A program made the translations under genes and the position numbers. A DNA stretch of 64,000 bases from a virus (taxonomy: Duplodnaviria; Caudoviricetes), in IMG/VR virus record IMGVR_UViG_3300008267_000012. One strand, written 5' to 3'. The first letter of the stretch is position 1. Every line of letters starts with the position of its first letter. Below the pieces are notes generated by a model. That model saw nothing but the letters and a program-made list of their open reading frames with translations, was not told the DNA's origin and did not search any database. Below are positions 35,012 through 63,957 of the stretch, piece after piece.

Positions 35012-35026
35012 TTTATAATAGTTTAT

Positions 35027-35035
35027 TATAAATAG
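35027..35035 (-). promoter_or_regulatory. Candidate late promoter CTATTTATA (sheath)
   Basis: Motif 15 nt upstream of the sheath ATG. Confidence 0.65.
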
Positions 35036-39907: not shown

Positions 39908-39921
39908 TTAAATGTATTTTA

Positions 39922-39946
39922 TATAAATAGTTATGAACTATTTATT
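39922..39946. promoter_or_regulatory. Back-to-back candidate late promoters
   Basis: tataaatag (39922-39930) and ctatttatt (39938-39946). Confidence 0.6.
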
Positions 39947-47394: not shown

Positions 47395-47413
47395 TTTATT
47401 ATAAATAGTAAAT

Positions 47414-47462: not shown

Positions 47463-49220
47463 TTAGATAGTGTCTAACATAAATTCAGCAGGTGAAGCAG
47501 ATGGAAGACCATTTACTAACACTTTACCATAGAACCTGTTGTTAACGACTTTCTTCGCATAACGAGTCATGATACCCATTACAGGTTTGAAGTCAGCAGG
47601 GTTAATGGTTTTTGGCATAAGCATCAACGGAACGTATGGAGCGTAGATGTAACCTGCGTGGAAGATTGAATCTCCTTTGTGTCCAATAAGAACAACACCA
47701 GCAGGAGCATAAGCATCAACATATACTGTGTATCTGTTAGCAACTGAACCAACTTTCTCAATACCTAAAGAGAACTTAGTTTCTTCAGCAGAAGCATCAG
47801 AAGCATGGAAGTACTCAAGGTCATTAAGAACAGCAGCAACTTCAGGAGAACATACAACCCAGTTTGCACCACCACGAAGAGTGAATTTCATGATACGAGC
47901 AGAGATTTGATTAATCTTGGTAATCAACTCTTGGTTGTAATCCTTACGAGTGATTGCAATGTTGTTAGCAGCACTTTGGAATCTTCTATCATAGGCTGAG
48001 TAATCCCAATATTCAACATGTGAAGCAGACTTACGAAGGTCACGAAGGATTTCACGGTCAATTTCACCTGATACAACTTCAGAAAGAAGTGCAGTTAATT
48101 CAGCCTCAACATCAATTGAGTGGAATGCGTTAACATCTTGCTGAAGTTCAGGAGTGAAGGTAGCACCTAACATTCTCTTTTCAACAGAAACGTCAATAAA
48201 GTCAAATGTGAAAGTTACTTGTGGAATTTCAGCATCTTCTTCTAAAGAAGAGTATTCTTTCCATGAAGCAGTAAGGTTAGCAGCAGTAAATGAAACAGTA
48301 GACTTTAAACCTGTACCATTTGCAGCATAAGGATTATTTCCATATACAGTACCACCACTTAAAGGTGAATTAAGAATTAAGTCAACAAGAATGTAATCAG
48401 TTCCTTTAGCAACGATTTCTTTTGCATAAGCTTGCATTGGAAGTCTAAAAGGAATTGGGTCACCAGCTGCAATGATAGTAGAACCATCAGCCTGAGAAGT
48501 AAGTGCAGAAGATGCAGTAACTTTTAAGCTCATTAAAAATGATTCAGTATCAATGATTTGACCTGAAGGACCAGTTAATTTACCTTCGTTAGTAGTGCTA
48601 AATCCTGAGATTCTAATTAAACATCTCTGAGAACCACTTGCACTACCAGGAACACCTGAAATAATTGCAGCAGCAGCAATAGACCTGTTGGTAATTCTAC
48701 CTTTAGTTCTATCAAAAAGACCACCAACATCTTCAAAATCACTTCCTTGATTGTAGAAAGAATCATACAATGAAGTTTGCTGATATTGAGTACCAGCAAC
48801 TTTTACACCGTTAACATAGTTAGCAGCAGCATTGCTATACACACCATCAAATGCTGTGTGAGCAGTAGTACCAACTCTTGTAGAAATTTTAGGGTTAATG
48901 AAATACAAACGACCAATCGGCATGTTCATAGCCTGAACTGATACGATTTCGTTTGCAAGTAATTTTTGGAAAACACGTCTGATGATTGGAAACGCAACTG
49001 TTTCAAATGAACCTGAAGATGTAGCATCAGTTGATTCATTGATTAAGTAAGACGCTTGGTTCTCATACAATTGAGCAATGTTTTCTGCCATGTGACCTTC
49101 AAGGCCATCAAGCAAGCCGAACTGATTCCACTTTTCGGTAATCAATTCACGCTGTTCTCTAAGTTGTCTGTATTCTTGACCAACTTTTCCAGAGTTAAGG
49201 ATTTCGGTAATTCCGTACAT
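47463..49220 (-). CDS. gp23: Major capsid protein, T4 gp23-like
   Basis: KW...GLL, YENQ..YLINE|S, FPIIRRVF..LLANEIVSVQ.M..P.G, ELQQD.NAFHS.DVEAEL..LLSE...EIDREI, GYIYAPYVPL, MTRY. Confidence 0.95.
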   Translation of the reverse strand: MYGITEILNSGKVGQEYRQLREQRELITEKWNQFGLLDGLEGHMAENIAQLYENQASYLINESTDATSSGSFETVAFPIIRRVFQKLLANEIVSVQAMNMPIGRLYFINPKISTRVGTTAHTAFDGVYSNAAANYVNGVKVAGTQYQQTSLYDSFYNQGSDFEDVGGLFDRTKGRITNRSIAAAAIISGVPGSASGSQRCLIRISGFSTTNEGKLTGPSGQIIDTESFLMSLKVTASSALTSQADGSTIIAAGDPIPFRLPMQAYAKEIVAKGTDYILVDLILNSPLSGGTVYGNNPYAANGTGLKSTVSFTAANLTASWKEYSSLEEDAEIPQVTFTFDFIDVSVEKRMLGATFTPELQQDVNAFHSIDVEAELTALLSEVVSGEIDREILRDLRKSASHVEYWDYSAYDRRFQSAANNIAITRKDYNQELITKINQISARIMKFTLRGGANWVVCSPEVAAVLNDLEYFHASDASAEETKFSLGIEKVGSVANRYTVYVDAYAPAGVVLIGHKGDSIFHAGYIYAPYVPLMLMPKTINPADFKPVMGIMTRYAKKVVNNRFYGKVLVNGLPSASPAEFMLDTI

Positions 49221-49245
49221 AATTTTTTAATGTTTTTTAATTTAA

Positions 49246-49254
49246 TTTAAATAG
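49246..49254 (-). promoter_or_regulatory. Candidate late promoter CTATTTAAA (capsid)
   Basis: Motif 25 nt upstream of the MCP ATG. Confidence 0.6.
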
Positions 49255-49272: not shown

Positions 49273-51285
49273 TTATTTTTTCTTACCAAAATTATAGTTA
49301 AGTAATTGTTTAAACCTATTAGATTCATCACTTTCATTGATTAAATCCTTTTCTTTGACAAGTGCATTGTCAGTTCTATGAATTTTACCAACTTTATTTT
49401 GTACTGATTCATTCAACATTGAACCATCTTTAACTGTTTGCCCTTTTGCAAACTCATTTGTTAGTGAAATATAGGTCTCTTTAATTTGTTCTTTTGTTTG
49501 TGCATTTGTAAAGCGATGAATAATTTGTAATTTTTCATTCTCTCTAAGAGGATGTTCAAGTAAAAACTTGTTTACAAATCCTGCTTTCAATGCACTAATT
49601 GTTACATCATAGACTTTATTCTCTAATGATTTAACTTTATTTGTAAAACCTTCATTTAAGGCTTTATTTTCTGCTTTAAGTTTTTTAACTTGCTCTTGTA
49701 AAGATTCAAATTCTTCATTTTCCATATCTTCTTCTGAAACAAGAGTAGGTTTTGAGCGTCTGTCAGGTCTTCCTTGAGCAGATTCATCAGCACCCATGTT
49801 TCTTGCTGATTTTTGGGTGCGACTATTAATAGCACTACTTTCTTCTAATTCATCTTCTTCTTTCATTGAATGTAACATTTCTTCAATTTCAGCTTCAGTT
49901 AAATTAGAATAATCTTCTTCCATTGGATAATCTTCTCTAGGGTCAACATCAATTTTCATTCCATCTTTATTTTTATTCATAAAAGTCATTGATTCACCAT
50001 CACCTTCTTCTTGAAGCATTTCATTCATTTCTTCAAGTTCTTCCATTGTCATTTCTTCAAACATTTCTTCAAGTTCAGATACAGATTTTTTTGGTTGCAT
50101 TCTATCCATACCACTTACTTCTTCAACATCGTGCATTGTTTCTTCAGCACCCATTTCAGCAAGCATTTCATTGATTTGCTCATCGGTTAATTCCATTTCA
50201 TTCATGTTCCAATTTTCATCATGCATTTCAACTTCATACATAATATCTTCATCTTGTGAGCCAAACATTTCTTCTTCTGAAGATGGATAATTTTTGATTA
50301 CAGTATCACGACCCATTTTTTCATAAGAATAACGACTACCATCAGGAGCATTTCTTACAGAAGGTTTTTCAGAATCCATAGAAGGATTACCTCCACGTCT
50401 ATATGAAATTTCATGACTCATTGGAGTTTCTTCATATTCTTCATCATATAAATCTTCATCCATCATTGAATGAAAACCTTCTTCATATGTATCATCTTCT
50501 TCCATATATTCATTTTCTTTAATGATGAAAGAATCATTATCACCCATATTATAATATGCTTCAACTAATTTATTAAAGCTTACATCTCTTAAATCTTTTA
50601 AAACTTGTTTTTTTGTATTTCTCATTTTAGTATTATTTCTTTTAAAATTTTCATTTATTTTTTGAAAGCTTTCTTCTTCTTCCCCTTCTTCCTCATCACT
50701 TGGTTCAGCTAAGACTTTATCATCAACATTGACATCAGAAAATTCATCATCATTTGATTCTTCATCACCAAATTCAATATCTTCTTCATCATCTGAATCA
50801 TCCATTTCTTCTTCATCAGAATCCATTTCTTCATCATCTGAATCATCCATTTCTTCTTCATCATCTGAATCTGCTTGAACTAATTTAAAACCATGTTCTT
50901 CTGCTGCTTTTCTTAAATCATCTAAAGACATTTCTTCTTCAGAATCTTCCATATTTTCTTCATCATCTGATTCTTCATCAGAGTCAACACCTTCTAAATC
51001 ATTAAGTTCACTTAAAATTTCATTAAGTGAAACTGATTCCTCAATAGATTCTTCCTTTTTTTCTTCTCCCTCTTTTTCTTTGGATTCTTCTTCTTTTTCT
51101 TTAGACTCTTCTACTTCTTCAACATCTTCACCTGCAATTATCTTTTCAAATAATGCAGCAGATTTTTTTTCAAGTAAATCAGCACTTTCATTAATCAGTT
51201 GTTCTTTGGCAAGTTCCAAAGATTCATTCTTGATATTTTCTAGTTCTTGCAAACTATCTTGTAATAAAGACTTTTTATTATTCAT
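49273..51285 (-). CDS. Prohead core scaffold protein, gp22-like
   Basis: 670 aa, extremely acidic with a coiled-coil C-terminus, located between the protease and MCP genes; many (L/I)xE sites. Confidence 0.75.
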   Translation of the reverse strand: MNNKKSLLQDSLQELENIKNESLELAKEQLINESADLLEKKSAALFEKIIAGEDVEEVEESKEKEEESKEKEGEEKKEESIEESVSLNEILSELNDLEGVDSDEESDDEENMEDSEEEMSLDDLRKAAEEHGFKLVQADSDDEEEMDDSDDEEMDSDEEEMDDSDDEEDIEFGDEESNDDEFSDVNVDDKVLAEPSDEEEGEEEESFQKINENFKRNNTKMRNTKKQVLKDLRDVSFNKLVEAYYNMGDNDSFIIKENEYMEEDDTYEEGFHSMMDEDLYDEEYEETPMSHEISYRRGGNPSMDSEKPSVRNAPDGSRYSYEKMGRDTVIKNYPSSEEEMFGSQDEDIMYEVEMHDENWNMNEMELTDEQINEMLAEMGAEETMHDVEEVSGMDRMQPKKSVSELEEMFEEMTMEELEEMNEMLQEEGDGESMTFMNKNKDGMKIDVDPREDYPMEEDYSNLTEAEIEEMLHSMKEEDELEESSAINSRTQKSARNMGADESAQGRPDRRSKPTLVSEEDMENEEFESLQEQVKKLKAENKALNEGFTNKVKSLENKVYDVTISALKAGFVNKFLLEHPLRENEKLQIIHRFTNAQTKEQIKETYISLTNEFAKGQTVKDGSMLNESVQNKVGKIHRTDNALVKEKDLINESDESNRFKQLLNYNFGKKK
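50781..50871 (-). repeat. Degenerate tandem repeat encoding (D)SDDEEEM units in the scaffold
   Basis: Repeated tcatctgaatcatccatttcttc units. Confidence 0.75.
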
Positions 51286-51320: not shown

Positions 51321-52022
51321 TTAATTCCCAATTATTTTTCTTATAGAATCATCATATTTTTTTACATTATTGTTTTGTATTACTACTGATTCTTGCAATG
51401 ATTGGTCTTTTGTTTCCAAAAATAGATAAGCGTTAGGTGTAGATGGTGTAGCAACTAAGTCAAAACAAATAAGTTCAAAATCATCTTGAACAATATTTTT
51501 TCCACCTACTTTTTTAACACTACCTAATCCTCTTGAAGAGATACCAAGTTTAAGATTTCTTTGTAAGTATAATGCAATTTTATCGCCAATACACCAACCA
51601 TGACCATCTCTCATGAATGAATCGCTAACGATAATATCAAGAGTTCCATATACTGCGTTACCTGACCACCATGTTTTGGCAATTCTGTGTGAAATGTTTT
51701 GTAAAGAAATTGTAACTGATTCAGGATGGTCTGCTTCATTAAGTGCTGCATAATCATTAATAAGTTTTTGATATTCGTCTATTTGCTTTGCTAATATTTC
51801 TCTTGGATAAACTCTTCCGTTACGATTTAAAACATCAGCTTCCTGAAGTTTACAATCAATATAGAAATGACCATCAAAATCATTTCTTCTAAATTTTGAA
51901 TTTAAATCTTCAAATATTTTTTTATTATTTGTGGTTAAATCATTTGAAATAAGACCTGCATCAGTTTCTACTAATAAACCATATCCTTCTTGTCCTTCTT
52001 TTAGTAGTTGTACTTCTTTCAT
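51321..52022 (-). CDS. gp21: Prohead core protease, gp21-like
   Basis: LQEADVLNRNGRVYP, ALNEADHP, LGISSRGLGS, DDFELICFDLV.TPST. Confidence 0.93.
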   Translation of the reverse strand: MKEVQLLKEGQEGYGLLVETDAGLISNDLTTNNKKIFEDLNSKFRRNDFDGHFYIDCKLQEADVLNRNGRVYPREILAKQIDEYQKLINDYAALNEADHPESVTISLQNISHRIAKTWWSGNAVYGTLDIIVSDSFMRDGHGWCIGDKIALYLQRNLKLGISSRGLGSVKKVGGKNIVQDDFELICFDLVATPSTPNAYLFLETKDQSLQESVVIQNNNVKKYDDSIRKIIGN

Positions 52023-52786: not shown

Positions 52787-52820
52787 TTTTTTTAGTGTTT
52801 AATATAAATAGTATAAATTA

Positions 52821-54635
52821 TTATTCTTTTATTAATCTATCTAATTCCGCAGTCTTTTTAAATATTTCTTCACTTAAAAAACCAGCACCACCTGTAGCAC
52901 CACCACCACCTGCTTCAGCACCACCCATTGGAGGTGTACCACCGCCCATATCAGCACCGCCACCCATAGGAGGTGCGCCACCTCCCATATCAGCACCACC
53001 TAATCCACCACCAAGACTATTATCTAATTGTTGTTGTTCTGTATTAGCTTGTTGCCCTTGTGCATCGGCAACACTAAATCCTGCATTTTTATACTTAATC
53101 ATTTTATCCATTAATCCTGATGATTTAAGTAACATACCAGAACTCTTAACTTCTTCACCAATCTTAGATTCAAGCATTTGTTCTTGAAGGTCATTAATAA
53201 TATCTTCTTCAGACATATGGAAAAATTTCTTTTTACCCATAAGTTCTGACATTGGTTTTAATCCTGTATTTTGATTTGGTGTTGTAGCAGCTTGATATAC
53301 TTCTAATTTTGTTTTCCAAATTTCAAGTTGTAATAAGTCAGATGCTGTTGATGGGTTATTAAGAGATAATTTAAAATCATCAATATATGATTCATAATCA
53401 CCACCAAGCAATCCCAAATGTATAATAGCAATCTTATTAAGTTCACCAAGTAATGCTTGTTGAATACGATTTACTTTTCTTGCAAAACGAATATCAAGCA
53501 TTGATAAATTTTTACCTCCACCTTCACCTGTTGAATCAGATGAAAAACCAAGCAATGTTTTATGAATACCTAAACCTGTAAATAAATTATCACGAAGATA
53601 ATTAATATCAGATATTGCCTCAAGATTAGATGCACCTGGAAGTGTATCAACAAAATTACCCGATGTATTACCTCTGTCAGCAATGAAGATATCTTCATCC
53701 ATTGAAGCAATATTATATTTAAAGTTAATATCACCTGTCTTAGGGTCAACTAATTTCTTTTTCTTTACATTGTTAGCGAATGCTTCAAGAATTTGTGGAA
53801 CATCTTCAGGTGGAACATTACCAACAGGAACTTTATAAATTCTTCTTTCTGCTGCTCTTGTGATACGATACACCATCATAGCATCTTCCATCATAAAAAG
53901 TTGCTTATATGTTCTTCTTACTTTTTCATATACACTACAACCATATGGAAGTCTATCACCTGTACCCAATAATCTAAAGTGTGCAACTTGATAATCTAAA
54001 TATTCTTCTTCACCACCAGAATTTGGGTCTTTGTATTTAAAGAATGCTCTAAATCTATTTTTAGCATCATACTTTTCATTTCTTTCAACAAATTGTGATG
54101 CAAGTTGTCTAAAATCCACAATACCATTTTCTTTTGATAATTCTAAAAAAATAAAATTATCCCCATATTGGCACATATTTCTACACCAATAAAATATATT
54201 TGTATTGATATCCATAACTTTATAAAAGAATCTTTCAAGTTCTTTTTTAACTTTATCAGATGAACAATAAATATTTAAAATTTGTCCTGTATCACTTTTA
54301 GTTGTTGTTGCTTCTTCAGATAATAAATCTAATGCTGCACCTAAAATTGGATACCCATCCATTGATAAATAATCATAGTAGAGCATCATTCTACTAGATT
54401 CATACATCAATTTACGTTGGTCGTTACCCTTATCAATTTTGGTGCTTTGAGTTCTATAAAACTTTATCGCACCATCTTCCACAGCTTTTTTTGTAGCTTC
54501 TTCTTGAGAAGCAGCAGTAATAAATTCTTTTTGAACAGGTGCTTCATATCTACCTTGTGTGCTATCCAAAGCATCAGTTGCTCTTCTAAAGAAAGTATTA
54601 ATGTTTGAAAATAAGCCTTTATTATCTTCTGCCAT
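52821..54635 (-). CDS. gp20: Portal protein, gp20-like
   Basis: EDAM.VYRITRA.ERRIYKVPVGN.P, MDEDIFI, VDTLPGA.NL..I.DI.Y, DIRFAR; Gly/Met/Pro-rich tail. Confidence 0.95.
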   Translation of the reverse strand: MAEDNKGLFSNINTFFRRATDALDSTQGRYEAPVQKEFITAASQEEATKKAVEDGAIKFYRTQSTKIDKGNDQRKLMYESSRMMLYYDYLSMDGYPILGAALDLLSEEATTTKSDTGQILNIYCSSDKVKKELERFFYKVMDINTNIFYWCRNMCQYGDNFIFLELSKENGIVDFRQLASQFVERNEKYDAKNRFRAFFKYKDPNSGGEEEYLDYQVAHFRLLGTGDRLPYGCSVYEKVRRTYKQLFMMEDAMMVYRITRAAERRIYKVPVGNVPPEDVPQILEAFANNVKKKKLVDPKTGDINFKYNIASMDEDIFIADRGNTSGNFVDTLPGASNLEAISDINYLRDNLFTGLGIHKTLLGFSSDSTGEGGGKNLSMLDIRFARKVNRIQQALLGELNKIAIIHLGLLGGDYESYIDDFKLSLNNPSTASDLLQLEIWKTKLEVYQAATTPNQNTGLKPMSELMGKKKFFHMSEEDIINDLQEQMLESKIGEEVKSSGMLLKSSGLMDKMIKYKNAGFSVADAQGQQANTEQQQLDNSLGGGLGGADMGGGAPPMGGGADMGGGTPPMGGAEAGGGGATGGAGFLSEEIFKKTAELDRLIKE

Positions 54636-54655
54636 AATTAATAAAATACGTTTTT

Positions 54656-54664
54656 CTTAAATAG
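54656..54664 (-). promoter_or_regulatory. Candidate late promoter CTATTTAAG (portal)
   Basis: Motif 20 nt upstream of the portal ATG. Confidence 0.6.
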
Positions 54665-54675
54665 ATATAAATATT

Positions 54676-56454
54676 TTATCTGACAAATATGTAAGGATTA
54701 TTATTAATCTTTGGTGTTTGACGTTCAGGTACATCTATACTATTACCATTTGTATACCAATCCTTTCCTTTAAGCATGTCATTCTTTCTTTCATAGTTTG
54801 CATCTTGACCATCTTGACTTAACATTTTCTTTTGGAATTCAGTACTTGCATCAGTAAATTCATCACCTTTTCTTACTATTGCTGATTTAGCATAATTCAA
54901 ATAAATATTGAATTCATTCCCAATTGTTTTAGAAAACATATATACAGCAAATAACATACCTGTTGCAATCAACAAGTCATCGTGTGCTGAACGCATGTGG
55001 TCATATCTATTTGTATTATCATTAAATACAAATGTCTTGATTTCACTAAGTAATCTAATTGAGTGAATTAATGCTTCACCCTCTCTTAATCTTCTTTCAA
55101 ATTCTCTAATAACATAATCACGAATAGCACCACTCTTCATTGTGAAACCTGGCTGTAACTCACCTCTTTGTAAATTCTTTAATTGAATTTTTACATCGTT
55201 TTGTCTTGGTCTATCGTAATGTATTTTTTTATATTTATTATTTACCAAATATCTAATAACTGATATACCCCAACCCCCTGTAACATCTATAATTACATAT
55301 GCATTATTATACTTTTGACCATATTGTAAACATAACTCACCCATTACTTCAAGTGGAACTCTTGATTGATATTCCGCTACTTGAACAAGTAACATGTTTA
55401 CAGCATCATTTTTAAATATTTGAATTGTAGAATAGTCACCATCACCACTACCTTTTGCAACGTCACAAGATAAATAATAATCATATCCAAATATTGGGTC
55501 TTCCCATATCCAAAAATTATTATCATATTCAGTTCTAATTGGTTCTTTACAAGTTTTTTCAATTCTCATAATGGTTTCCTCATCAACAAGGTTACCACCT
55601 GAACCCAAGAATTTATTTTCTAATTCTTGTGCAATTTTTCTTGGGTCATTGTTAAAGGTTTGACACATATCCCTAAACCAAGAAGATGATGGTCTATAAC
55701 CACCAACTCTTAATTGCATATATTTTTCAGGGTCTTTTTCTTCAACAAATTCATCACCTCTAATCCAAATCAAATCTTCATTGTAACGAGGGTCTTCAAA
55801 CCAATTGATTTCAACAACTTTAAAGTTATTCTTACCTGTTCTTGCCCCTTCATAACGAGCATAATATGTTGGGTCAAGACCTCTTGGTGTAGAGTTTAAT
55901 ATAATCTGACCACCTGCTGACATTGTACCTGATGCAGATGACATAAATTCTTCACCTTCTTCAAGGAACGCTGCTTCATCTATAAATAATATATCAGGTG
56001 TAAATCCCCTTAGACCATCGGCAGATGCTGCGAAAGCCTGTAGTGTTGCGCCATTGTTATAAATCTTAATCTCTTTTGTATCTGAATCAGTTGGTATTCT
56101 ACCAAATATTTCTCTTGGTAGATTATTAATAATGGATGCAATCTGATAGAAGATACTTTCCTTTGCAAGTTTTAATTTGTTAGCTGCAACACCAACTTTA
56201 ATATCCTTTCTAAAAACAATTGAATGTGCTAAATAAAGACAAGTCACAGTAGTAATGCCACCCTGACGATATTTTGCAACTAAAACTCTGTTACTTTCTT
56301 TGTATGTTTCTAATACTTGACTTTGTTGTGGCAATAATTGAAAAGAAACATACTGTTGTTTTTTCTTATCCCAAACTTTACAATATTTTCTTGCAAAGTA
56401 CTCTATATCAATAGCGCACTTGGCATACTCCATCATTAACTCATTTTTAGTCAT
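54676..56454 (-). CDS. terL: Terminase large subunit, gp17-like
   Basis: KYRQGGITT (Walker A), LFIDEAAF (Walker B), STPRG, LSCDVAKG.G.GDYS, HDDLL nuclease motifs. Confidence 0.95.
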   Translation of the reverse strand: MTKNELMMEYAKCAIDIEYFARKYCKVWDKKKQQYVSFQLLPQQSQVLETYKESNRVLVAKYRQGGITTVTCLYLAHSIVFRKDIKVGVAANKLKLAKESIFYQIASIINNLPREIFGRIPTDSDTKEIKIYNNGATLQAFAASADGLRGFTPDILFIDEAAFLEEGEEFMSSASGTMSAGGQIILNSTPRGLDPTYYARYEGARTGKNNFKVVEINWFEDPRYNEDLIWIRGDEFVEEKDPEKYMQLRVGGYRPSSSWFRDMCQTFNNDPRKIAQELENKFLGSGGNLVDEETIMRIEKTCKEPIRTEYDNNFWIWEDPIFGYDYYLSCDVAKGSGDGDYSTIQIFKNDAVNMLLVQVAEYQSRVPLEVMGELCLQYGQKYNNAYVIIDVTGGWGISVIRYLVNNKYKKIHYDRPRQNDVKIQLKNLQRGELQPGFTMKSGAIRDYVIREFERRLREGEALIHSIRLLSEIKTFVFNDNTNRYDHMRSAHDDLLIATGMLFAVYMFSKTIGNEFNIYLNYAKSAIVRKGDEFTDASTEFQKKMLSQDGQDANYERKNDMLKGKDWYTNGNSIDVPERQTPKINNNPYIFVR

Positions 56455-59053: not shown

Positions 59054-60022
59054 TTAGTTAGAATTTATAGAAAATACGTTATTTACTATTTCTTTTTTAT
59101 TATCCTTGATAATATCAAATAGTTTATTATTTCTCAATACTTTAAAAACTAAGTTATTTACTGAAAACTCACCTTCTGTCTGTGTTGCTTCACCACGTTC
59201 TTTCTTAATCTTTTTAAGTACTTTATTATAACTCTCCATCTTCTTTAATGAATCTTCCATCATTGATATCTTATTAAAGATATCTAAATACTTGTTAACT
59301 TTTTGGGTAACTAAATGCCTATCAACTTCAGGTAATTTATACTTTGGTTTCTTAATCCATTTGTTATCAATTATTGAATACATTGCGCTTTTACCCACAG
59401 TCTGTTCATTTATATCTTGAACATATATTTCAACAGGATATGAACCAATCTTTACATCATTTGATACTTCCCATGCTGCTCTCTTTTGTAAAAAATAATT
59501 CATTACAAAATCAACATCATCTGAAACATCTTTATAATCAATAACAATATGTAAATCAATATCAGATGAATCTGTATAATTATAATTTGCTAAACTACCT
59601 GTAAAGATTATATCTTTTAATTTTACCTTTGAATCTAATTCTAAACTATTAAAATAGTATTTACCAAGATTTAAAAGATTTTTTCTGATATTACTTTTTA
59701 AATGATTATTCAACCAAAATTGAGGATTTAAACTTTTATGATATTCAATCTCAACATCTGATTTTAATTTAGATGGGATATTTTCTTCTTCTAATTGTTT
59801 ATAAATTGTTTCTTCCAACTTTGCTTTTTTAAGTTTAGTATAGTATTTTGGATTCTCAGATAAATGGTCCATAGCAATTTCTTTTGCTTGTTTTTTATTA
59901 TCAGTATGTTCCATTTCAGTTTTAATACCCAACTTTAGTTGTGATGTTAAATCCACAATAGAAACTTTATGTTTTTTAGCAATTTTTGGCAATGTTAATT
60001 TGTCTGCTTTACCTCCTTTCAT
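59054..60022 (-). CDS. DUF5661-like domain fused to a Pol-beta-superfamily nucleotidyltransferase
   Basis: N-terminal QLKLGIKTEMEHT...AKEIAMDHLSENPKYYTKL; C-terminal FTGSLANYNY..SSDIDLHI...PVEIYVQD (GS, DxD and a third acidic residue). Confidence 0.75.
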   Translation of the reverse strand: MKGGKADKLTLPKIAKKHKVSIVDLTSQLKLGIKTEMEHTDNKKQAKEIAMDHLSENPKYYTKLKKAKLEETIYKQLEEENIPSKLKSDVEIEYHKSLNPQFWLNNHLKSNIRKNLLNLGKYYFNSLELDSKVKLKDIIFTGSLANYNYTDSSDIDLHIVIDYKDVSDDVDFVMNYFLQKRAAWEVSNDVKIGSYPVEIYVQDINEQTVGKSAMYSIIDNKWIKKPKYKLPEVDRHLVTQKVNKYLDIFNKISMMEDSLKKMESYNKVLKKIKKERGEATQTEGEFSVNNLVFKVLRNNKLFDIIKDNKKEIVNNVFSINSN

Positions 60023-60060
60023 TTGAAAAATCGTATTTTATACATATAACTAGAAAAAAA

Positions 60061-60069
60061 CTATTTATA
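60061..60069 (+). promoter_or_regulatory. Candidate late promoter CTATTTATA
   Basis: 11 nt upstream of the ATG at 60081. Confidence 0.65.
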
Positions 60070-60080
60070 ATAAAAATAAT

Positions 60081-61512: not shown

Positions 61513-63957
61513 ATGGAAAATCAGCAAGTACAACCAACAACTGTTGATACTAGAGTTCAAGGTGGTGCAACAAAGAAAACAAAGAAACGAGAATTTAAAA
61601 ATCGTAAAACTTTTTCTTTGAAGGCAATGGAAGCTTTAGTTGACAAAGTTGGTTTTCTTAAAAATAAATATGAAGCATTAGCTATCAATGCTCAAGAAAA
61701 ATTGGGATATCATTATAATGAAATCTTGAATATCTTACTTTTCCATAAATATGTTAAAGGAAATAAAAAATTATTTAACATGTACAAAAAAGTAAAAGAT
61801 GCAATAAATAAAGGTTATGAATTTGAAAAGAAAAAATTAAAAGAAAATACCATGAAAAATAAAAGTAATAAAACTCATTTTGCAATTAATAAAAATACTA
61901 ACAAAATTCTAGAATCTTGGAATTATGAAGGTTATGAACATGATGAGTTAAAAAAATATAAAGATGAATATTTTACAAAAGATGTGAAAAGAAATTATCC
62001 ATTCTTGAATGAAAATGACATTGTAGTTGTTTCAGCTAAAAATTTAGAAAAAAGAGAACTTAATGAAAGTAATAAAAAAGATTGGCAGAAATATAACTAT
62101 TCTCATTTTGCTTTATTAAAAGAAACTAACCATATTCTATATGGTTTTGATTATTCTAATGTAGATTCAGAAGAATTAAAAGAAAATAAAAATCATTATT
62201 TCTTAAATGTTATATCTGAAGAATATGGTAATGAAATATCTCCAAAAGATGTTGTAGTTGTTAAATCTAGTAAACTTGATAAATTAGGTATTAAAGATTA
62301 TTTAAATGAATCTAATTGGGTTGGATTAATCAATGAAGCATATTGTGGAGACAATAAAGAAGAAATGATTGATGAAGTTAGTAGAGATAGAAATTTGATT
62401 AACAGTCTTGTAAATGGAGATATTTATGAATATGAAGTTCCAAGTTGGGCTTTAGGTGCTTTAATTAATGGTGATTATAGTGGATTAAGTGATGAAGATG
62501 AACAAAAAATAAATAACTTTGTTCAAAGCGTTGTATCTGAAGTTGGTAATGCTAATTTCTATGGAGGTGAAGAAGAAGATAGAATAGGTTTTAGTGGATT
62601 TAATGACATTGATAAATTAGGTAGTGAAGTATATAAAGTTTATGTTAGAAAGTCTAATATTGAAGAATCAACTGCAATGAGTAATGCATTCCCTGTTGGT
62701 AATCAACCTACAGGTGGATATCCTGTTGCTAATCCAAAAAAGAAAGGTAAGAAAAGAGGATTTGATTTAAAGAGTGGACAGAATATGTTTGACCCACCTA
62801 GTAATGATTTAGGTGGTTTAGATGATTTTTATAGTAGATGGTCAAACCCTGCATTTAAGAGTAATAAAGGACCTGTAAAAGTTGATAAAGCAGGTCGTGT
62901 TAAAGTTAATACTAAAACACATTATTCAGGTACAAATAAAAGTGTAAAAGGTGTAAATGAAAATTATAATTTAGTTGATTTAGATGCTTTAATGAATGAT
63001 GAGATTGTAGAATACAAAAAGATATCAGCACCTAGTAATGTATTTAAAAGTCCTAAGATTGAATTAATCAGAGAAAATAATAGAGATAGCATTACTGATT
63101 TTATTTTAAAACACCAAGGTCGTGAATTACCTGAAGTATATAATAAAAGACAGTTAGATACATTAGCATTAAAAACTTTAAATGAATATTATAATAGATT
63201 AGTTCAAAGACTTGGTTTACTAGCAGAAGAAAAAAGACCTGATGCATTAGTTAGAATTGATGCTCTTAAAAAACAATCTCAAAAAGATACTAATAACTAC
63301 TATAAAAAAGATGCAAGTAACAAAACCACTACTATGCTTGTTCAAAAAGGTGAAGGAGATGGTTTAGAATATGATAAAGATTCAAGAGAAAGAAAAGATA
63401 TTCCAATGTATAAGTTTCAATCTGACCATCAAAAACAATATCTTGAAAAAGGTCATAGAGGATTAGAAGATTTTGTTCCCGATAATAATCCAAATGGTGA
63501 AGTTGACCCTGTATGGGAAGCAAGAAAGAAAGCATTAATGAGTACACAAGAAGTTGGTGCAAAAGCATATGATTCAGCTAAGAAAAGAATTCAATACAAA
63601 AAAGATAATAAACTTGGTACAGGTAGAAATAGAGCAGTCCTTAATCAGGAGACCTTACCTAAAGTTGATAAAGCAGATGAATTATTAAAAGAAAATACAT
63701 TTACCGTTATAAATGAAGAAAATATCTTAAATCAGATACAATCTTATTACATTGATGACGAAAATAGAAAAAAACCTGTTATATTTGATTCAAACAATAT
63801 CGTTGAAATGCAAAAAATCAATGAAAATAAACTTTCGGGTTGTAAAGAATTAATATATAAAGGTTTAGGTCAAACTTTATCTGAAGACTTTAAAAATAGA
63901 GTTTTAAACAAGAAACTTCTTTACTCACCTGATAGTAAAAAAGTTTTCTTAGTTTAA
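61513..63957 (+). CDS. Large multi-domain late protein with duplicated HFA..K.T..I...Y module (polyvalent-like)
   Basis: 814 aa with two copies of a roughly 70-aa module, a VPSWALGALINGDYSGLSDED domain and many (L/I/V)xE sites. Confidence 0.6.
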   Translation: MENQQVQPTTVDTRVQGGATKKTKKREFKNRKTFSLKAMEALVDKVGFLKNKYEALAINAQEKLGYHYNEILNILLFHKYVKGNKKLFNMYKKVKDAINKGYEFEKKKLKENTMKNKSNKTHFAINKNTNKILESWNYEGYEHDELKKYKDEYFTKDVKRNYPFLNENDIVVVSAKNLEKRELNESNKKDWQKYNYSHFALLKETNHILYGFDYSNVDSEELKENKNHYFLNVISEEYGNEISPKDVVVVKSSKLDKLGIKDYLNESNWVGLINEAYCGDNKEEMIDEVSRDRNLINSLVNGDIYEYEVPSWALGALINGDYSGLSDEDEQKINNFVQSVVSEVGNANFYGGEEEDRIGFSGFNDIDKLGSEVYKVYVRKSNIEESTAMSNAFPVGNQPTGGYPVANPKKKGKKRGFDLKSGQNMFDPPSNDLGGLDDFYSRWSNPAFKSNKGPVKVDKAGRVKVNTKTHYSGTNKSVKGVNENYNLVDLDALMNDEIVEYKKISAPSNVFKSPKIELIRENNRDSITDFILKHQGRELPEVYNKRQLDTLALKTLNEYYNRLVQRLGLLAEEKRPDALVRIDALKKQSQKDTNNYYKKDASNKTTTMLVQKGEGDGLEYDKDSRERKDIPMYKFQSDHQKQYLEKGHRGLEDFVPDNNPNGEVDPVWEARKKALMSTQEVGAKAYDSAKKRIQYKKDNKLGTGRNRAVLNQETLPKVDKADELLKENTFTVINEENILNQIQSYYIDDENRKKPVIFDSNNIVEMQKINENKLSGCKELIYKGLGQTLSEDFKNRVLNKKLLYSPDSKKVFLV

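Follow-up and report, generated by a model that had tools for sequence, protein, structure and literature searches.

A DUF5661–nucleotidyltransferase fusion opening the packaging block of a Caudoviricetes phage: a predicted two-lobed Pol-beta enzyme and candidate head-associated cargo

A minus-strand gene at positions 59054-60022 of IMG/VR virus record IMGVR_UViG_3300008267_000012 (Duplodnaviria; Caudoviricetes), analysed here over a stretch of 64,000 nucleotides (the window), near certainly encodes a fusion of the DUF5661 domain with a nucleotidyltransferase (NTase) of the Pol-beta superfamily. Judged from conservation, the 322-residue product (P0001) has a catalytically intact active site of the Pol-beta type and is a predicted enzyme. 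By comparison with its relatives, the gene is the shortest version of a hypervariable polyvalent-protein locus that opens the packaging and head block. The evidence is tentatively accommodated by a composite reading, to which we assign a probability of roughly 0.4, whereby the protein would be late-made, cut by the prohead protease and carried as head-associated cargo, with the NTase acting on an RNA 3' end. The gene and its modules are as follows, the sites written [LI]xE being of the L/I-x-E type cut by the T4 prohead protease gp21.

59054-60022, minus strand: whole open reading frame (ORF), 322 amino acids plus stop, comprising DUF5661, a short linker and the NTase module (ORF listing, Pfam, PHROG)
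59810-60022, minus strand: DUF5661 module, residues 1-71, four helices, ending K-A-K-L-E-E (Pfam PF18905, E 9.2e-15; 76-sequence alignment; model helices 11-79)
59810-59818, minus strand: first [LI]xE site, L69-E70-E71, at the conserved DUF5661 end; candidate prohead-protease site
59786-59794, minus strand: second [LI]xE site, L77-E78-E79; candidate prohead-protease site
59057-59779, minus strand: NTase module, residues 82-322 (PHROG 36119; own family hidden Markov model, E 2e-86)
59594-59599, minus strand: G142-S143, the hG[GS] motif of the Pol-beta fold (74-sequence alignment)
59549-59563, minus strand: D154-I-D156-L-H158, two metal-binding aspartates and a family-specific invariant histidine (74-sequence alignment)
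59429-59431, minus strand: E198, the third acidic residue, on strand 195-203 (74-sequence alignment, model)
59072-59320, minus strand: C-terminal helical lobe, residues 235-317 (alignment, model, Pfam)

Both modules are recognised by profile searches. Pfam identifies DUF5661 (PF18905) at residues 13-66 (E 9.2e-15; 55.2 bits against a curated cut-off of 27), bearing out the DUF5661-like N-domain that a first-pass annotation, made from the sequence alone, had named. The NTP_transf_2 match (PF01909; residues 128-209) is a marginal pass (21.7 bits against a cut-off of 21), and the NTase assignment rests much more securely on PHROG 36119 (function unknown), which covers residues 89-315 with E 9e-41. 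Across 74 family members, 55 of which match NTP_transf_2 at E≤0.01, residues G142, S153, D154, D156 and H158 are invariant, while S143 and E198 are kept in at least 90%; the complete catalytic set read in the first pass (GS, DxD and a third acid) is therefore upheld by conservation. An alignment-based AlphaFold model (predicted local distance difference test, pLDDT, 90.4), used instead of a single-sequence model that reached only 35.7, shows an alpha/beta core and a helical lobe, with the catalytic strands located as expected for Pol-beta. Its parts are a four-helix DUF5661 (residues 11-79), an N-terminal helix with the alpha/beta NTase core (110-225) and a four-helix C-lobe (235-317), and model confidence is lower in the linker (residues ~70-85).

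The C-lobe sets this family apart. R276, N290, K294 and R297 are invariant in it and G284-E285-x-S287 is conserved, and together with H158 and W222 the four invariant residues are the family's own; no Pfam family matches the lobe in any of the 74 members scanned. Because of this conserved four-helix lobe the NTase is two-lobed, and its earlier description as a minimal NTase does not stand. Comparison of the protein sequence with PDB sequences found nothing, the NTase profile matched PDB entries only at the core motif (E 0.015 or worse), and Foldseek against the PDB gave weak rows only (CD-NTases, AadA and MNT; E 4e-3 or worse), with no close solved relative and no convincing solved structure for either NTase lobe. 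Strong matches were obtained in the AlphaFold database and a viral structure library (best E 1e-20 to 1e-21), all to unnamed phage proteins, and a wide viral structure search was dominated by generic helical bundles aligning to the C-lobe. The comparison with CD-NTase, MNT, CCA-adding and poly(A) polymerase families proposed in the first pass yielded no confident membership in any of them.

The NTase family unit of ~235 residues is phage-restricted, and the family (PHROG 36119) has neither a characterised member nor a dedicated Pfam model. With the whole protein as query, an exhaustive search found 8,473 clusters at 50% identity with E≤1e-3 and 3,295 with E≤1e-10, and a word-indexed homologue search retrieved 1,081 proteins. 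Atlas clusters for the NTase and for DUF5661 are 92-100% viral, and the NTase extends across Lak megaphages, other huge phages, cyanophages and flavobacterial phages; megablast against the phage collection found no near relative. DUF5661 is present in 28 of the 68 multidomain members, on either side of the NTase, and further partners among these members are ART-PolyVal, GNAT, 2H/Acb1, cytidylyltransferase-like (CTP_transf_like), NUDIX, RES, amidoligase, metallopeptidase and GH19 with LysM domains.

DUF5661 is itself strongly conserved. In a 76-sequence alignment G32, E36, E38, H39, T40, H53, Y60 and Y61 are invariant, giving an E-x-E-H-T, H and YY pattern; solo phage proteins of 67-86 residues are common, and in larger proteins the domain is N-terminal, internal or C-terminal. 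A single copy is found in the 64-kb window and in each of three relatives of 130-170 kb (records 40-55% complete). Other partners include Kinase-PolyVal, ART-PolyVal with Zeta toxin, and ParB_N. The domain also occurs in a DUF2213 protein encoded in the Vibrio phage VPs20 head module, with terminase genes to one side and capsid genes to the other, and at the N-terminus of gp206 of Synechococcus phage S-SRM01 (L044:4881-6710). The latter is a 609-residue protein with a C-terminal DUF6321, whose gene stands between those of the two terminase subunits (small and large) and has virion structural genes around it. No PDB entry was matched by the DUF5661 profile, the domain is mentioned nowhere in the literature searched, and a predicted complex of the NTase module with DUF5661 in trans scored 0.00, which is evidence neither way. 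A motif resemblance to the NAD-binding Ia domain of NAD-dependent ligases, considered in the light of PMC9503650, was rejected, hhalign against the N-terminus of Escherichia coli LigA giving a probability of 0.2. A disposable tag is expected to be short, poorly conserved and common to several cargo proteins. Such a role is improbable for DUF5661, which is folded over ~70 residues, retains invariant polar residues, exists in solo forms, varies in position and occurs once per genome fragment; the proposal that it is a removable packaging tag is not supported, and the domain would instead be an autonomous ligand- or metal-binding module.

The same locus varies greatly among relatives. Gene order is the same in L001 and L002 (protein 71% identical) and in the P0270 contig, and the closest long relative, on a 170-kb IMG/VR contig with 89% identity, has a 906-residue frame with a PolyA_pol head domain. 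The window protein itself has two modules, and as many as six domains can be recognised in other proteins encoded at this locus. The architectures seen are the following.

322 residues: DUF5661, NTase
423-438 residues: DUF5661, insert of ~100 residues of unknown type, NTase
415-815 residues: DUF5661, hydrophobic segment with repeated unknown domains, NTase
512 residues: weak GNAT-like domain, DUF5661, NTase
891 residues: CCA-adding enzyme with HD domain, DUF5661, NTase
1,177 residues: the modules of the 891-residue version, with an insert
L047:2595-9791, plus strand: polyvalent protein of 2,398 residues in the slot upstream of the large terminase gene of a distant relative (NTase 50% identical)

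The 2,398-residue protein combines CCA-adding, ART-PolyVal, DUF5661, RES/DUF3990-like, 2H/Acb1 and NTase domains. The inserts between DUF5661 and NTase in relatives have no significant Pfam match. Within one such insert (residues ~72-195 of P0003 and P0022), a 'SDGRHRAIAAKELGI' stretch looks ParB/Srx-like by eye; Pfam gives it no ParB match and only a weak Rotamase match (E 0.002), and the ParB/Srx-like motif 'DGRHR' of P0003 is unconfirmed.

The genomic setting places the gene beside those for packaging and the head. On the minus strand the DUF5661-NTase gene is followed by genes for proteins of 174, 382 (acidic), 136 (membrane and coiled coil) and 145 residues and then by the large terminase gene (TerL), after which come a T4-type portal, a 254-residue protein, a Peptidase_S77 protease, a 670-residue hyper-acidic protein and a gp23-type capsid protein. 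It is thus the fifth gene ahead of TerL and shares its orientation; L001, L002, the P0270 contig and L047 all keep this order. Its earlier placement in the head module needs correction: the gene begins the packaging-and-head block and lies outside the head genes proper. No terminator-like site occurs between genes from the DUF5661-NTase gene to the portal gene, and the gaps are short. The principal features of this setting are listed below.

60023-60080, no strand: 58-bp divergent intergenic region (comparison with relatives)
52821-56454, minus strand: portal (52821-54635) and large terminase (54676-56454), downstream and in the same orientation
51321-52022, minus strand: T4 gp21-type prohead protease, Peptidase_S77 (E 3e-23)
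35026-35035, 39921-39930, 47399-47408, 49245-49254 and 52802-52811 (all minus strand) and 60061-60070 (plus strand): CTATTTAWAW sites

In relatives with proteins of only 65-90% identity the divergent region is nearly unchanged. Within it are ACTATTTATAA, serving the plus-strand gene for a 155-residue protein, and a one-mismatch copy, CTAGTTATAT, that faces the DUF5661-NTase ORF and is exact in four relatives. The element ACTATTTAWAW (core CTATTTAWAW, usually ACTATTTATAA/T) has 15 occurrences where 5.0 would be expected, a count reached in none of 100 shuffles, and its core lies 10-25 nucleotides upstream of the genes for the sheath, the capsid and the proteins of 1301, 132, 254 and 155 residues, which makes it a candidate promoter for structural or late genes. 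Late co-expression of the DUF5661-NTase gene with the packaging and head genes is plausible on this basis. The TATAAATA in the divergent region, located 40 nucleotides upstream of the ATG, was considered as a T4-type late promoter and dropped: that motif is barely enriched (32 against 21 expected), and the sequence is the reverse complement of ACTATTTAWAW, serving the divergent 155-residue gene.

The phage encodes its own protease of the gp21 type, presumably the agent of any [LI]xE cleavage, and the specificity of this enzyme can be approached through the head proteins. [LI]xE motifs are enriched in the 254-residue protein (13 against 6.3 expected; z 3.3), the 670-residue acidic protein (26 against 14.5; z 3.4) and the protease itself (7 against 2.5; z 3.1), and five of the seven motifs of the capsid protein (47463-49220, minus strand) lie in its first 62 residues, ending ...YLINE, with STDATSSGSFETV following. 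This enrichment in the phage's own head proteins, scaffold-like proteins and capsid propeptide included, suggests that T4-like specificity has been retained. The two LEE sites reported in the first pass are present, and their positions at the module boundary are conserved; their number alone is what chance would give. The first site is the conserved end of DUF5661 in the branch associated with the NTase: LEE or LDE follows DUF5661 in 18 of 19 proteins with the NTase-then-DUF5661 order and in all close relatives. In 41 of 50 distinct relatives an [LI]xE motif occurs exactly five residues ahead of the conserved IPSKL with which the NTase module begins, regardless of the insert preceding it. Modules of the 2,398-residue relative are flanked by comparable sites, which occur singly or in pairs. 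Such boundary sites fit cleavage into units by a prohead protease, and they fit conserved module ends equally well.

The 670-residue hyper-acidic protein (49273-51285, minus strand), between protease and capsid, has no Pfam match and is probably a scaffold or core protein. A KEATGASSSGSYETP-like repeated peptide similar to the capsid N-terminal region (residues 1-75) directly follows DUF5661 in the low-complexity proteins P0285, P0300 and P0304 of other phages. The strongest [LI]xE enrichment in the region belongs to an ORF of 814 residues with a DUF6926 match in the divergent cluster (61513-63957, plus strand; 22 motifs against 8.9 expected; z 4.8), which may be another protease-processed head protein.

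Under the composite reading, the protein would be made together with the packaging and head proteins, and the T4-type prohead protease would cut after glutamate at E71 and E79, freeing an NTase of ~243 residues; if so cleaved, it would be cargo associated with the head, in the manner of T4 Alt and the internal proteins. The NTase is predicted to move a nucleotide from a nucleoside triphosphate to an acceptor hydroxyl through the GS/DxD/E two-metal site, with the triphosphate or the acceptor possibly bound by basic residues of the C-lobe. An RNA 3' end would be the likeliest acceptor, and the role may be to restore or modify tRNA ends alongside CCA addition, against RNA-targeting defences of the host. 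The idea of tRNA ends gains a real lead from the same-locus relatives in which the cassette is fused to a CCA-adding enzyme with HD domain. The RNA lead also draws on the fusion to 2H, on the tRNA-gene surroundings of the solo NTase in phage Cr30, on weak matches to an MTPAP-like palm in 34 of 74 members and on known RNA repair by jumbo phages. The PolyA_pol head (PF01743) and RNA-binding neck are absent from the window protein and found only in the extra N-terminal part of P0270, P0277 and P0123; the window has no tRNA gene, and no CCA-adding sequence was found in it by tblastn with the N-terminal part of the relatives. A more elaborate version is unlikely: that DUF5661 and NTase are two previously undescribed core modules of a head-delivered, protease-cut effector polyprotein, encoded at a locus common in large aquatic phages, from which an injected RNA-end NTase of a new kind would restore tRNA 3' ends damaged by host defences, with CCA-adding, HD and 2H modules, at the start of infection.

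Several observations weigh against the composite reading. The window protein has five [LI]xE motifs where 3.8 are expected, hence no overall enrichment, and conservation at the boundary could reflect conserved module ends, the motif being short and the proteins rich in K, E and L. Fusion to MuF or portal domains was seen in none of the 68 multidomain members. The CCA-adding fusion is confined to one lineage and is weak evidence of a shared substrate, because domains of polyvalent proteins are usually independent effectors. Solo NTase genes, examined in Cr30, S-CRM01, Molly and two metagenomic giant phages, are found outside head modules, in regions that are early, metabolic or unannotated. Phage Cr30 encodes DUF5661, a cytidylyltransferase-like protein and the NTase in separate genes that neighbour one another among tRNA and DNA polymerase genes, the NTase of S-CRM01 is near a cytidyltransferase gene and that of Molly near a NUDIX gene; the surroundings in the two giant phages are uninformative.

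The gene neighbourhoods in Cr30, S-CRM01 and Molly favour an alternative that is possible, though doubtful, in which the protein is a cytoplasmic enzyme at work in the infected cell, neither packaged nor cleaved, DUF5661 is a permanent accessory that binds a ligand, a metal or the substrate, and the [LI]xE motifs are helix ends. Consistent with this, the invariant DUF5661 residues other than G32 are typical of a binding or catalytic site, the domain pairs with the NTase in either order in the 28 proteins counted above and is common as a solo protein, and its occurrence once per genome fragment leaves no tag common to several cargo proteins. This alternative accounts less readily for the fact that the locus in this lineage always heads the terminase-portal-protease block, for the DUF5661 proteins inside the packaging and head modules of the unrelated S-SRM01 and VPs20, and for the agreement of the boundary motif with the inferred specificity of the phage protease.

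It is improbable that the NTase nucleotidylates proteins in the manner of MntA, DrrA/SidM or Fic-type AMPylators, directed at a host factor of defence or translation or at one of the phage's proteins. The NTases treated by Iyer et al. (2017; PMC5512222) are predicted protein modifiers, yet they form a different minimal family, found in Firmicute conjugative elements. Weak profile matches to DrrA and SidM_N, like the other similarities of this kind, all fall within the universal GS...DxD core, and although protein-modifying ART, kinase and GNAT modules co-occur with the cassette, the NCBIfam MntA model scores 14.2 bits against a cut-off of 60 and no HEPN match is found in the neighbouring 174- and 155-residue proteins. 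Least probable of all is an enzyme of nucleotide signals or metabolites (a CD-NTase-like synthase or decoy, an NAD- or ADP-ribose-linked enzyme, or an aminoglycoside-type small-molecule NTase), for which speak the top Foldseek rows in the PDB (CdnE, CdnD and AadA/ANT, with an apparently similar two-lobed layout), the nucleotide- or NAD-centred partners (Acb1/2H, NUDIX, cytidylyltransferase-like, ART and RES) and one GenBank homologue annotated as an aminoglycoside nucleotidyltransferase, but those structural matches are weak (E 4e-3 or worse; TM ~0.2), the PADLOC scan matches no CD-NTase model, its only hits being weak ones to PDC-S09 and PDC-M70A (E 2e-3 or worse), neither SMODS nor KNTase_C is matched in Pfam by the window protein or the 74 family members, no CBASS-type effector is nearby, and the GenBank annotation is automatic.

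If the modules are carried in the head and released by the protease, the model provided by T4 Alt and the internal proteins would extend to modular multi-enzyme cargo, and a new activity that counters host defences at RNA ends would be indicated. Even if the enzyme is unpackaged, the function of one member would annotate thousands of phage genes, given the thousands of 50%-identity clusters in the NTase family. The locus is also a natural experiment, in which a promoter-proximal slot exchanges CCA-adding, ART, RES-like, 2H and unknown inserts while DUF5661 and the NTase remain constant.

Among the closest known systems are the polyvalent proteins, which are predicted, where encoded beside portal and terminase genes, to be packaged in the capsid and divided by processing into individual units (Iyer et al. 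2017; PMC5512222). The partner domains of the NTase and of DUF5661 listed above are of the types that make up such proteins. The present locus resembles them in being phage-encoded, adjacent to terminase and portal genes and built of shuffled modules, and same-locus relatives have ART-PolyVal, 2H, metallopeptidase, GNAT and ParB-type neighbours; the window version differs in having two modules only. The domain set of that study includes neither DUF5661 nor the NTase family described here, its Pol-beta NTases being minimal and from Firmicute conjugative elements (PMC5512222). The zincin peptidase hub of polyvalent proteins is absent here, so that any processing would fall to the prohead protease.

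Processing of that kind is familiar from phage T4, in which gp21 removes a capsid-targeting sequence from the head cargo Alt and internal proteins IPI-III at L/I-x-E sites. The likeness lies in the gp21-family protease, the L/I-x-E sites between N-terminal piece and enzyme, and the company of late genes. The T4 tag, however, comprises ~10 poorly conserved residues and is common to several cargo proteins, whereas DUF5661 is a folded domain of 65-70 residues with invariant polar positions, present once per fragment and also solo or C-terminal; no tag common to several cargo proteins of one phage was found, the window having one DUF5661.

As an enzyme, the window protein shares a GS-x(9)-SDIDL core with MNT/KNTase-type proteins (MntA; PDB 1ylq and 2rff; ANT(4') and AadA), and a second, helical lobe is likewise present in ANT and AadA, which are ~250-260 residues long. 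It differs from them in its low MntA score, the lack of a HEPN partner, a C-lobe that no Pfam family matches and its own set of invariant residues. RNA repair in jumbo phages is known to involve NTases and CCA-adding enzymes (Iyer et al. 2021; PMC7824862), and RlaP and the class II CCA-adding enzymes are, like the present protein, Pol-beta NTases of large phages, to which relatives of the cassette fused to CCA-adding, HD and 2H domains bear a further likeness. The window NTase differs in giving no match to the PolyA_pol head. For RlaP, which we take to be Pfam PF10127, no match was listed at E≤0.1 for the window protein or at E≤0.01 for the 74 relatives, in searches whose HMMER filters can drop weak matches, and no RNA ligase was seen in the genomic contexts examined. 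The present fusion is best seen as a variant of two known kinds, Pol-beta NTases and phage polyvalent effectors.

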